A DNA stretch of 23,719 nucleotides, taken from assembly GCA_046292385.1 (NCBI GenBank), contig JBKBRF010000056.1, positions 15,824-39,542 of the forward strand, read 5' to 3'. Shown here in pieces: positions 2,037-12,299 of the stretch. A program made the position numbers and the translations under genes. The number at the start of each line of letters is the position of its first letter. The first letter of the stretch is position 1. The notes under the pieces were generated by a model, which ran no database searches, was not told the origin of the DNA, and saw only the letters and a program-made list of their open reading frames with translations. This DNA comes from Armatimonadota bacterium (lineage in GTDB: Bacteria; Armatimonadota; SYMT01).

Positions 2037-2473
2037 CGAGTCCTCCGGCGAGATTCCCCTGGCGGGGAAGCGGTGGCAAGTGTCACACGCTGTAAAGTTA
2101 CGCCACTGGCGGCGCAGGCGAGATTTGCCGCCGTCCGGCGCTCGGTAGGGGCGGGAAAAGCTCGGCCGCCTTCGTTTTCCCACCCCAGTCATCCTGAACG
2201 CAGTGAAGGATCTACGTCGCGCCCTCTGCGCCGGAGCGAGAGGCCTCGCGCGCGGAGGGGCACCGACGGCAGAGTCCGCGTCACGTCCTGCGTGCTCCGG
2301 ACCAGCACGGCTGCCGAGATCCTTCACTCCGTTCAGGATGACTGGGGTAGGGGCACGTGAGGGGCCGTTCGTTCCTCTGGGCAGATCTTACGCTGCGCCC
2401 CGGGCGCACCCACTTTACAACGTGTGACACGAGCCACCGAATCTCCGTCGCGGGAAGGTCGCCGAAGCACTCG
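2037..2473. repeat. Long imperfect inverted repeat (arms about 2037..2129 and 2380..2473) enclosing the REP-like doublet; possible MITE-like element
   Basis: 2037..2098 versus the reverse complement of 2412..2473 gives 49/62 identity without gaps, with core GTGTCACACG(C/T)TGTAAAGT (2080..2098 / 2412..2430, 18/19). Similarity continues inward (2111..2129 vs 2380..2399). Confidence 0.8.
2182..2348. repeat. REP-like doublet (REPIN-like module), nuclease-free copy
   Basis: ACCCCAGTCATCCTGAACGCAGTGAAGGATCT (2182..2213) and its inverse at 2317..2348 (31/32 identical), 103-bp spacer. Homologous to the modules at 11027..11185 and 11585..11743, in opposite orientation. Confidence 0.92.
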
Positions 2474-10063: not shown

Positions 10064-10975
10064 ATGAAGCGCAAGAAGAAGAGCGGGAAGTCGCCCGGCA
10101 TGCTGCTGGGGCTCGTCGGTCTGGGAGTCGCCAGTGGAATTTTCGGCGCGTTTTTCGTCGGCCCGCGCCTCTCCGAGTGGACCGATGAGGAGCCAACGCG
10201 CCAGACTGCCTCGGCCCGCGTGCCGTCCCGGGCGGCGAAGGCGGACGAGCCTGCCCGCGACGAAGCGCCGGAAGAGCAGCCCCGGGTGGCGATCCACTCC
10301 GCCCGCGCCGAGCGCCCCGCGGAGCCGGAGCGCAAGTCCGAGCGCGACTCCCACCCGCCGATCTCCGACCGCGAGCTCGCCGAGCTGACCTACGATCCCG
10401 ACGCCGACCCCTCGACCCGCGATTCCGCGGAAGAGCCGGTCCGGGTGGCGGTCCGCCGCGGTGAGGGCGAGCCGGACCGCGGTGAGAGTGAAGAGCGGGA
10501 GCGCCGGCGGGAAGAAGAACGCCGCGCGGAAGAGCGCCGGCGAGAAGAAGAGCGGCGGGAGGAGGAGCGGCGGGAAGCGCGCGAGCGCGAAGCACGGGAG
10601 CGTGAGGCGCGGGAGCGCGCGGAGCGGGAGCGGACCGCTCGCCAACCCGCAACGCCGGCGCCGAAGCCGGCCCCGGCGAAGCCGGCTCCCGCCAAGCCTG
10701 CCGCGCCGGTGACCGCCGCCGGCACCGAGGCGGCCCCCGCCGCCGACGCGGGTCCGCTGCTCCGGGTTCGTCTGGGCCGCTTCAAGTCTCGCGAGGATGC
10801 GGAGAAGCTGCGCCAGGAGCTCGGCGAGACCCCCGGTGCCGTCCCGGCCGTGGTGAAGGTTGGGGAGGACTACCGGATTCAGGTCGGCGCGTTCCGCCAG
10901 CGGGAGAATGTGGATAAGCTCCTGCAAGAGCTCCGCGCGCGGAACTACCGCCCGGAAGTGGTGCAGGACCGGTAG
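10064..10975 (+). CDS. Membrane-anchored SPOR-domain protein
   Basis: Basic N-terminus plus one TM helix, E/R-rich helix, PAK-rich linker, C-terminal VRLGRFKSREDAEKL...YRIQVGAFRQRENVDKLLQEL; SD GGAGG. Confidence 0.85.
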   Translation: MKRKKKSGKSPGMLLGLVGLGVASGIFGAFFVGPRLSEWTDEEPTRQTASARVPSRAAKADEPARDEAPEEQPRVAIHSARAERPAEPERKSERDSHPPISDRELAELTYDPDADPSTRDSAEEPVRVAVRRGEGEPDRGESEERERRREEERRAEERRREEERREEERREAREREAREREARERAERERTARQPATPAPKPAPAKPAPAKPAAPVTAAGTEAAPAADAGPLLRVRLGRFKSREDAEKLRQELGETPGAVPAVVKVGEDYRIQVGAFRQRENVDKLLQELRARNYRPEVVQDR

Positions 10976-11017
10976 GGACACGATCCGGAGGAGACTTTTC
11001 CGAGGGAGACTTGCTAA

Positions 11018-11198
11018 CCGTAAGCAGTCATGCTGAACAACGTGAAGCATCTCGGCAGCCGTTCTGGATCGGAAAAAGCATAGACGTGACGAGGACTCGG
11101 CCTGGTGGGACGCACCCGGACGAGTGGCCAGCCGCCCCTCCCGAAAAGCCGAGTTACGTAGATCCTTCACTGCGTTCGGGATGACTCGCACGGGGTGT
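11018..11198. repeat. REP-like doublet (REPIN-like module), left flank of the GIY-YIG gene
   Basis: GTCATGCTGAACAACGTGAAGCATCT (11027..11052) and inverted AGATCCTTCACTGCGTTCGGGATGAC (11160..11185); direct repeat of 11576..11756 at an offset of 558 bp. Confidence 0.92.
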
Positions 11199-11251
11199 TG
11201 AGGAAGGTCGGAGTCAGTTCGCGGGTGGCGATGTAGCGTTTAGAGACAGAA

Positions 11252-11572
11252 TTGACCCAGAGGTTGTACACGACGTATATCCTCGCCAGCCGGACACGGA
11301 AGCTTTACGTCGGCGTGACGAGTGATCTCGAGCGGCGGATACTCGAGCATCGATCCGGCACCGGGTCGGAGTTCACCCGTCGTTACCGGATCTTTCGCCT
11401 CGTGTGGTATGAGCATTTTGATAGCCCTATTGCCGCTATCGAAGCAGAGAAGCGCATCAAGGGATGGACACGCGCCCGCAAGCTGGCGCTGGTCGAGAGC
11501 ACGAATGCGGAGTGGCGCGACCTGTACTCGCCTGTAATCGAAAGCAGCGAACCCGACCGCACCCAGCCATGA
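11252..11572 (+). CDS. Stand-alone GIY-YIG nuclease family protein, 106 aa
   Basis: YTTYIL...LYVGVTSDLERRILEHR (GIY/YIG-like motifs with conserved Arg and His), FTRRY, LVWYEHF, AIEAEKRIKGWTRARKLALVESTNAEWRDL (catalytic Glu and conserved C-terminal Asn-x-x-Trp); TTG start. Confidence 0.92.
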   Translation: MTQRLYTTYILASRTRKLYVGVTSDLERRILEHRSGTGSEFTRRYRIFRLVWYEHFDSPIAAIEAEKRIKGWTRARKLALVESTNAEWRDLYSPVIESSEPDRTQP

Positions 11573-11575
11573 CAC

Positions 11576-11756
11576 CCGTAAGGAGTCATGCTGAACAACG
11601 TGAAGCATCTCGGCAGCCGTCCTGGACCGGAACAGGCCTGGACGTGGCGGGGCTGGAGCCTAGCGAGTATCTCCCGAGCGGAAGTGCCTGCCGGTTTCAC
11701 GTCGAGCTGTGCGACGGAGATCCTTCACTGCGTTCAGGATGACTCGTACGGGGCGT
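11576..11756. repeat. REP-like doublet (REPIN-like module), right flank of the GIY-YIG gene
   Basis: GTCATGCTGAACAACGTGAAGCATCT (11585..11610, identical to 11027..11052) and inverted AGATCCTTCACTGCGTTCAGGATGAC (11718..11743, exact reverse complement of 2188..2213). Confidence 0.92.
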
Positions 11757-11822
11757 GCTAGCTGTCGGCTGGATCTCGGCAGGCACAGGGGCAGATCGGC
11801 GTTCGTTCGGCTGGTGGAGACG

Positions 11823-12299
11823 ATGAAACAGAACCCGGGCGGTAATCAGGGCGGCAGGAAAGTGGTAGTCGTAAACCGGAAGGCCCGGCACGAGTACGAC
11901 ATTCTGGAGACGATCGAGGCGGGGGTGATGCTCACCGGCACCGAGATCAAGTCGGTGCGGGCGGGGCGCGTGCAGCTCCAGGACTCCTACGCGCGCGTGC
12001 AGGACGGCGAGGTCTGGCTCCACAACGCGCACATCGCTCCGTACGAGCAGGGGAACCGCAACAACGTGGAGGCGGTCCGCCCGCGCAAGCTGCTACTCCA
12101 CCGGCGGGAGATCGACCGCCTCATCGGGCGGGCGCACGAGAAGGGGCTCACGCTCGTGCCGCTCGACATCCACATGCGCAACGGCTTCGCCAAGGTGGAG
12201 CTGGCGATCGCTAAGGGGCGGAAGCTCTGGGACAAGCGCGAGGCGATTGCGGAACGGGAAGCGAAGCGGGACCAGCAGCGAGCCCTCTCCGAGCGCTGA
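11823..12299 (+). CDS. smpB: SsrA-binding protein SmpB, 158 aa
   Basis: NRKARHEY, EAGVMLTGTEIKS, RPRKLLLHRREI, GLTLVPL, KGRKLWDKRE; ATG 11823 with SD GGAG (the ORF track start at 11709 is over-extended into the repeat). Confidence 0.97.
   Translation: MKQNPGGNQGGRKVVVVNRKARHEYDILETIEAGVMLTGTEIKSVRAGRVQLQDSYARVQDGEVWLHNAHIAPYEQGNRNNVEAVRPRKLLLHRREIDRLIGRAHEKGLTLVPLDIHMRNGFAKVELAIAKGRKLWDKREAIAEREAKRDQQRALSER

Follow-up and report, generated by a model that had tools for sequence, protein, structure and literature searches.

The Ssn system of Neisseria meningitidis pairs a small nuclease with a hairpin repeat: SsnA, a 94-amino-acid GIY-YIG protein, binds the NTS hairpin (CGTCATTCCCGCG...GCGGGAATC) exclusively as single-stranded DNA (ssDNA) and exclusively on the sense strand, with cleavage a few nucleotides upstream of the hairpin (Chenal et al., Nat Commun 2025; PMC11893778). 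According to the text of that study, the Ssn hairpins are CGTCAT-tagged and the family nearly equals CDD family cd10448. Cutting depends on the three bases that precede the stem and binding on the C that follows it, while the Y6A, Y17A, and E64A variants of SsnA keep binding and lose cutting. Cleavage of their own motifs was also found for homologues of three further species, with cuts at differing distances, and the Ssn/NTS pair of N. meningitidis modulates natural transformation. A degenerate motif termed SRM lies near 71% of Ssn homologues and on both sides of 42% of them, and the discussion likens the NTS-ssnA-NTS layout to that of an insertion sequence and draws a comparison to RAYT and REP (PMC11893778). 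Here, we analyzed a stretch of 23,719 nucleotides (the window) from an uncultured Armatimonadota bacterium (contig JBKBRF010000056.1, C56:15824-39542), in which a gene for a 106-amino-acid GIY-YIG protein lies between two direct copies of a module built from GTC-tagged hairpin units. Taking the analysis as a whole, we consider it highly probable that this protein is an Ssn-type nuclease that recognizes the folded unit on ssDNA and cuts 5' of the GTC tag. The pairing of such a nuclease with a repeat is already published, and the present case differs from it by its hairpin and its layout.

Two further classes of repeat resemble the one described here. CGTC-tagged REPs were defined as elements with a CGTC, TGTC, or CCTC tag, an 8- to 9-bp stem starting with A-T and T-A pairs, a 4- to 5-nucleotide loop, and a CCA tail, arranged as inverted dimers, and the available text of that work reports that no dedicated transposase was found (Di Nocera, De Gregorio and Rocco 2013; PMC3733652). 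The Armatimonadota unit is likewise a short palindrome with an unpaired xGTC tag and an A-T/T-A stem start that occurs mostly as inverted dimers, but it has a 3-nucleotide loop, a CT tail, and two nonstandard pairs, and GTC follows a C in only 18% of cases. RAYT/REPIN systems, as far as the sources at hand describe them (Nunvar 2010; Bertels and Rainey 2011), share with the locus a low-copy nuclease gene flanked by genome-dispersed inverted hairpin doublets and, presumably, the recognition of hairpins in ssDNA. They rely on an HUH/Y1 covalent intermediate and a GTAG tag, whereas GIY-YIG hydrolysis and a GTC tag would take their place here. Because the flanked gene encodes a GIY-YIG protein and not an HUH/Y1 transposase, the locus falls outside RAYT/REPIN, and for the Ssn pair mobility is a candidate reading, which is weighed below. 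A preliminary description of the window, made from the letters alone, had raised the possibility that a RAYT-like pairing with a GIY-YIG enzyme was undescribed; this did not hold, since the pairing is in print together with the analogy to insertion sequences and RAYT. Its guess that the enzyme might be a nickase came close to the published activity, although the published cut is made in ssDNA (PMC11893778).

The two modules repeat each other at an offset of exactly 558 bp: positions 11007-11094 and 11565-11652 of the window are 84% identical, 11147-11198 and 11705-11756 are 85% identical, and blastn aligns 11018-11198 with 11576-11756 at 77.7% over 184 nucleotides. Each 159-bp module core consists of a 26-nucleotide unit, a 107-nucleotide spacer, and an inverted unit, and the four units begin at 11027, 11160, 11585, and 11718 (Table 1). 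Six unit matches were found in the window, compared with none in 100 shuffles. The right module begins at 11576, the fourth base past the stop codon (11570-11572) of the nuclease gene, and its first unit lies 12 bases past the stop. An alternative TTG start at 11264 would yield a 102-amino-acid GIY-YIG protein. The G+C content at third codon positions (GC3) is 0.729 in the nuclease gene versus 0.845-0.917 in five neighboring open reading frames (ORFs), and this atypical codon usage suggests a recent arrival of the gene. The preliminary description had already named the direct modules at a constant offset around the gene, the two-unit cores, the module start just past the stop, and the excess of A/T-ending codons, all of which were borne out.

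The 106-amino-acid protein matches PF01541 (GIY-YIG) over residues 6-77 with an E value of 3.7e-17 (62.8 bits against a cut-off of 22.6). No second Pfam family matched, making it a single-domain protein by this search. An alignment of 26 homologues shows no variation at Y9, G21, R29, E66, or N85, and at least 90% of the sequences have Y19; Y9, Y19, and E66 fall about where Y6, Y17, and E64 fall in SsnA, a correspondence by residue position and not by alignment. The profile of the nuclease's family also matches PDB entries 1zg2 (E 4.5e-11) and 1ywl (E 7.9e-8), UPF0213/YhbQ-like proteins that are likewise small and consist of a single GIY-YIG domain. We take the UPF0213/YhbQ-like proteins to be a separate CDD family, cd10456, and know of no repeat association for them.

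The repeat unit consists of GTC, a 5-bp stem starting with A-T and T-A, a tandem G.A/A.G mismatch, two more pairs, a GNA triloop, and a CT tail. Covariation was assessed in 44 distinct units of the genome, for which resemblance to the consensus, and not pairing, had been the basis of selection. Pairing was seen in 93.8% of cells at the seven Watson-Crick stem positions, whereas 1000 shuffles of the 3' partners averaged 81.6% and reached at most 85.4%, and double changes occur at four pairs (T-A to C-G; C-G to T-A or G-C; A-T to C-G; and C-G to T-A or G-C). The G.A mismatch is kept in 40 of these 44 units, the A.G mismatch in 42, and the GNA loop in 38. Most doublets (24 of 38) carry T6-A22 in the left unit and C6-G22 in the right one; each unit is thus complementary to itself, and pairing across the two units would give T.G and A.C. 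Conservation over 104 units reaches 100% at G1, 98% at T2, 100% at C3, and 97% at C25, and the five bases upstream are variable. The conservation of GTC and C25 next to variable upstream bases matches the determinants mapped for SsnA.

The unit is one of a large family in the source genome (7.04 Mb, 91 contigs, 69% G+C). With up to six substitutions from the consensus allowed, 110 units were found, including 38 +/- pairs 155-160 bp long, and about 60 genomic places aligned to a module in a blastn search with the locus, in line with the many doublets that the preliminary description had named as support. The strict unit pattern has 57 matches (28 forward and 29 reverse). Dispersed doublets number about 40-60 in this genome and are almost absent from relatives in the same family. 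When oriented, they align over their full length, and their two ends differ, with CTCGGCAGCC following one and CTACGTCAC the other. Many doublets are embedded in larger mosaic clusters in which other repeat modules are equally abundant, and the doublets constitute one layer of the genome's stacked, BIME-like repeat system. One such cluster (C15:120828-121600) is a mosaic of about 770 bp made of several repeat families, with outer modules present in about 50 copies each, followed by two tandem doublets. One reading frame through the doublet is open in 32 of the 38, with roughly two expected by composition (a rough estimate), which is uninformative on coding.

It could also be that the modules act as RNA, whether as a structured noncoding RNA, a terminator, or an mRNA stabilizer, and that their link to the gene is regulatory. 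The whole left module does fold better than shuffles (-36.6 kcal/mol, z -2.31), and REP-type repeats are known to act in mRNA (PMC3733652). However, no Rfam match reached the gathering score in the window, and none was found up to an E value of 1 in 10950-11850. A scan compared with shuffles gave no promoter-like site and a terminator-like site only at chance level. The consensus fold of the spacer (107 nucleotides, 26 class-I doublets) has an energy of -6.1 kcal/mol with almost no double changes, so that we make no claim of spacer structure. Units are equally frequent on both strands, and SsnA does not bind RNA (PMC11893778). A role as RNA is therefore highly improbable.

A second small GIY-YIG gene, at C43:28944-29237, is the only other gene of its type detected in the genome by tblastn. 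Its protein is 80% identical to the one in the window, its locus aligns at 70% over 522 nucleotides, and it likewise is flanked by two modules of the same orientation. When the genome was searched with Pfam models, five GIY-YIG and five Y1_Tnp matches were obtained, and units were present within 1 kb only at the two small GIY-YIG genes (four and three units, respectively), with none at any of the five Y1_Tnp (PF01797) matches or the three other GIY-YIG-domain matches. Since only the small GIY-YIG genes have units this close, double flanking is not a chance effect of repeat abundance, a concern that the preliminary description had itself raised. Chance co-location of gene and repeats was rejected on the basis of these eight unit-free genes and of the 30-fold unit density in homologue flanks given below. 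A RAYT as the partner of the GTC units was also rejected, because none of the five Y1_Tnp matches has a unit within 1 kb. Two genes with strong Y1_Tnp matches (IS200/RAYT type; about 145-149 amino acids) are located away from GTC units, at C51:25920-26261 and C22:55627-55965.

The same association was seen well beyond this genome. We collected 287 homologues of about 95-110 amino acids (span, 85-142) and examined 80 loci (82 genes; 44-66% identity) from Acidobacteriota, Chloroflexota, Gemmatimonadota, Pseudomonadota, Planctomycetota, Rhodothermota, Deinococcota, and other phyla. Strict GTCAT hairpins occur 68 times within 300 bp of the gene (70.8 kb) and 19 times in the other 592 kb, a 30-fold enrichment (binomial p 8e-49) contributed by 32 of the 80 loci. 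A reading of the flanks at the other 48 loci revealed the same hairpin base with longer tip inserts. A looser model consisting of the base alone (GTCAT-xyz-GA ... GA-z'y'x'-AT) gave 196 hairpins within 300 bp and 85 elsewhere, a 19-fold enrichment, with units at 70 of the 80 loci and on both sides of the gene at 45. Because both genome copies are flanked by units and 70 of 80 homologue loci have units within 300 bp, the small GIY-YIG protein is, judging from these sequences, very likely the cognate nuclease of the GTC-tagged hairpins; this central proposal of the preliminary description, and the flank enrichment that it predicted, are well supported.

Sense units tend to point outward from the homologous genes, with 64 + and 35 - units upstream versus 67 - and 30 + units downstream, and a + unit, the gene, and a - unit form the commonest layout (31 of 82 genes). 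The doublet-gene-doublet layout is rare, recurring elsewhere at only 2 of the 82 homologue genes, both at locus L021. This locus, from an uncultured Acidobacteriota bacterium (L021:3919-5443), carries two tandem homologous GIY-YIG genes, each between doublets of about 177 bp.

Table 1. Coordinates of the nuclease gene, repeat modules, hairpin units, and neighboring genes in the window
Feature	Position	Strand	Description
GIY-YIG nuclease gene, probable Ssn type	11252..11572	+	106 amino acids, TTG start; Pfam PF01541
Left repeat module	11018..11198	+	159-bp doublet 11027-11185 and short conserved flanks; direct repeat of 11576-11756
Left-doublet hairpin unit, "A end"	11027..11052	+	rare ATGC/GCAT stem, AAC loop
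Left-doublet hairpin unit, "B end"	11160..11185	-	ATCC/GGAT stem, GCA loop
Right repeat module	11576..11756	+	doublet 11585-11743 and flanks
Right-doublet hairpin unit	11585..11610	+	identical to 11027-11052
Right-doublet hairpin unit	11718..11743	-	
Third doublet, gene-less	2188..2342		units 2188-2213 (+) and 2317-2342 (-); between real-looking ORFs ending by 1975 and starting at 2357
SPOR-domain gene, left neighbor	10064..10975		SPOR domain match
smpB, right neighbor	11826..12299		ATG at 11826; SmpB E 7.8e-60

The locus shares several characteristics with the Ssn system. In both, a single-domain GIY-YIG protein of about 95-106 amino acids is encoded by a gene flanked on both sides by hairpins, and in the window these are oriented hairpins with a 5' GTC tag and a post-stem C on either side of the gene. 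The unpaired GTC tag is followed by A-T and T-A pairs, a C follows the stem, sense orientation matters, many further repeat copies exist in the genome, and the pairing is widely spread across phyla. Unlike the Ssn hairpin as the published text presents it, the Armatimonadota unit has a conserved tandem G.A/A.G mismatch and a GNA triloop. The units are also paired into 159-bp doublets whose spacer is conserved and whose two ends differ, the gene is bracketed by two doublets of like orientation instead of sitting within a single inverted pair, and the host phylum here is Armatimonadota.

Published criteria for an Ssn protein are a cd10448 match or a tblastn E value of <1e-10 to N. meningitidis SsnA (PMC11893778). 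The tables of that study list S. paucimobilis with an SsnA homologue of >60% identity and a cd10448 hit, Rubrivirga marina as Ssn-positive and cd10448-positive with an SRM "enrichment" of 0.37-fold, and two Armatimonadota reference genomes as Ssn-negative with no SRM excess (PMC11893778). The 106-amino-acid protein is 58% identical to the product of a Sphingomonas paucimobilis gene (locus L041) whose flanks contain four matches to the published SRM string. It is also 56-66% identical to Rubricoccaceae homologues, which carry the G.A-type unit (loci L005 and L035). Over the 80 homologue loci, the SRM string occurs near the gene at four, in one case probably inside the gene. It finds canonical NTS-like hairpins at L029, L041, and L073, showing that the string was correctly implemented. 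Judged from the text and tables of the paper, the G.A/GNA hairpin class seems to lie outside the published motif definition, which would thus miss a large class of hairpins with nonstandard pairs. Censuses of the Ssn family (71% flanked; PMC11893778) are consequently probable undercounts. Our literature search found no description of a GIY-YIG-repeat pairing beyond that of Chenal et al. 2025.

Several observations weigh against assigning the protein to the Ssn type and the unit to its target. The published SRM string matches 0 of the 110 units and 0 of the 4 flanking ones, and its 95 matches genome-wide are at chance level (72, 103, and 104 in three mononucleotide shuffles). No NCBIfam model matches the protein, and its membership in Ssn (cd10448) would follow from the bridging homologues and not from a comparison with SsnA itself. 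Even with the loose model, units are absent from 10 of the 80 homologue loci, and only 12 of the 28 Armatimonadota homologue loci have a unit. Among genomes with at least five units, 7 of 14 have no match to the gene, which also argues against a strict dependence of the repeats on it; five of these seven genomes (19-138 units, 96-100% complete) have no GIY-YIG match other than one in a frame of 612-647 amino acids, UvrC by size. Repeat-flanked genes can drop from assemblies, so that absence of the gene from unit-rich relatives is not proven. Finally, single units were no more stable than shuffles in nearest-neighbor DNA folding (z -0.89 to +0.33). In DNA, sheared G.A pairs and GNA triloops have unusual stability, for which the folding energy model probably gives little credit; hence, folding of single units is uninformative. 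The hairpin rests on covariation together with this general knowledge of G.A and GNA stability.

If the 106-amino-acid protein behaves as the published family does, it would bind the folded 26-nucleotide unit only in ssDNA and only in the sense orientation. Recognition would involve the unpaired GTC tag on the 5' side, the stem, and the C that follows it, and cleavage would fall on the same strand within the variable flank, a few nucleotides 5' of the tag. An SsnA substrate whose GTC starts at base 26 gives a 20-nucleotide product (PMC11893778). By this analogy, the + strand would be cut about five bases ahead of 11027 and of 11585, and the - strand about five bases ahead of 11185 and of 11743, and two same-strand cuts would bound a 558-nucleotide piece containing one doublet and the gene. 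In the host, such cuts may serve the control of incoming or replicating ssDNA, or the spread of the repeat. An uncultured Armatimonadota genome would thereby join the carriers of the Ssn nuclease-repeat pairing, and the tandem G.A mismatch and GNA loop would be concrete candidate specificity determinants for enzymes that are being developed as ssDNA tools.

Comparison of the insertion site with relatives bears on whether these enzymes spread repeats or only act on them, as do the unit-rich genomes without the gene. The gap between the SPOR-domain gene and smpB measures 850 bp in the window, 750 bp of which is the module-gene-module block. In two genomes of the same family, the two genes are less than 100 bp apart, corresponding to the empty site that the preliminary description suggested looking for, and in a third the hemW-like gene that precedes the SPOR-domain gene in the window abuts smpB. 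The nuclease gene is absent from all five smpB loci examined in relatives. Compared with the SPOR-smpB junction of the relatives, and as far as these sequences can tell, the 750-bp block is an inserted segment. The strict unit pattern occurs 57 times in this genome versus 0-2 times in six genomes of the same family. The nuclease gene was found in 18 of 61 genomes searched, this one included, with a best hit elsewhere of 56% identity; it is present in 9 of the 16 genomes with the unit pattern and 9 of the 45 without it.

These data can be read as a mobile system resembling RAYT/REPIN or a small insertion sequence, which would extend the interpretation as an Ssn-type nuclease and is compatible with it. 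Cuts at outward-facing tags would free single-stranded doublets or the 558-nucleotide piece of doublet and gene, and host ligation or repair would paste them beside other cut sites. Such a system would account for the inserted block, the excess of strict units, which suggests recent spread within the lineage, and the patchy distribution, distant best hit, and low GC3 of the gene. The common layout of + unit, gene, and - unit resembles terminal inverted repeats, and many homologues lie on very short contigs, as repeated DNA does. The stem variant also tracks the protein tree, requiring 27 changes versus 33-43 in 500 label shuffles (69 rows, quick tree). Co-variation of repeat and protein, which the preliminary description had proposed to look for, thus exceeded the shuffles, but related rows share labels and overstate co-evolution, so that the comparison weakly supports it. 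Other points speak against mobility. GIY-YIG enzymes hydrolyze DNA with no covalent intermediate and cannot themselves join it, so that joining would need other factors. Half of the unit-rich relatives lack a detectable copy of the gene, five of them with only a UvrC-sized GIY-YIG match, and another process may move all the modules of the mosaic clusters, in which the doublets are no more abundant than the rest.

Contigs from public sequencing runs break at the repeats, and they contained no excision product, circle, empty allele, or target duplication, which is uninformative either way. Runs of other studies do contain near-identical copies of the gene and of its junction with the right module and smpB (X7 record 24, with 1 difference over 337 nucleotides, and X6 records 17 and 18). 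Contig "joints", such as one from 11072 to 11713 with 81 other letters between, were rejected as excision events, being other copies of the doublet. On balance, mobility of the pair is possible but rather doubtful. That the enzyme spreads or maintains the repeats, as the preliminary description put it, is unproven, with the inserted block in its favor and the unit-rich, gene-less relatives against it. It is unlikely that gene and doublets form a type of self-propagating element that has yet to be demonstrated in bacteria, with a hydrolytic GIY-YIG nuclease in the role of an HUH transposase. If they did, re-insertion beside other cut sites would regenerate the doublet-gene-doublet layout, and the G.A hairpin class would be the dominant target of the element in Acidobacteriota, Chloroflexota, Gemmatimonadota, and other phyla.

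The stability of the block where it is present fits a domesticated host function, in which the hairpins mark chromosomal sites and the nuclease trims ssDNA bearing units during uptake, conjugation, replication, or repair. Contigs of other studies with near-identical pieces of the locus indicate such stability, the gene is intact in two diverged copies (80% amino acid and 70% nucleotide identity) with the same layout, and modulation of transformation is the only biology of the family that has been tested (PMC11893778). The gene is nevertheless absent from 43 of 61 relatives, which would be unusual for a core function, and its codon usage suggests a recent arrival; we regard domestication as fairly unlikely.

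A selfish homing-type nuclease gene could instead parasitize a pre-existing repeat and be copied between doublets, with the repeats spreading by other means. Free-standing GIY-YIG homing endonucleases do exist, 7 of 14 unit-rich relatives have repeats without the gene, and the gene sits between complete doublets and not within one. Homing enzymes, however, have extra DNA-binding domains and cut double-stranded DNA, whereas this protein is a bare catalytic domain. Only two gene copies face about 60 potential targets, and homing would split its target, not leave two whole copies. The Ssn family, moreover, cuts single strands only (PMC11893778). Homing is thus very unlikely, and an Ssn-type nuclease acting on folded units in ssDNA is the reading that we prefer.

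A few additional features of the repeats and of the surrounding sequence were observed. The two + units of the window share an ATGC/GCAT stem and an AAC loop and are the only 2 with this combination among 33 genomic matches to the unit pattern of the preliminary description. The ATGC/GCAT variant recurs in other Armatimonadota genomes (G033 and G058) and beside homologues at loci L001, L040, and L055. The outer flanks of the gene-less doublet at 2188-2342 (CCCACCCCA before one unit and TGGGGTGGG after the other) are part of a further many-copy repeat module. The database proteins P0040 and P0008 have N- or C-terminal extensions, such as VILSEAKD and DPSLRSG, that resemble translated flanking hairpin units, indicating that gene callers run into the repeats. 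The product of the SPOR-domain gene (10064-10975) has a long low-complexity middle that is Glu/Arg-rich and Pro/Ala-rich, with 33-bp and 15-bp tandem repeats. Soil and root metagenomes from several studies (runs X2, X6, and X7) include contigs with near-identical pieces of this locus, and the best holder is labeled as a hot-spring metagenome.

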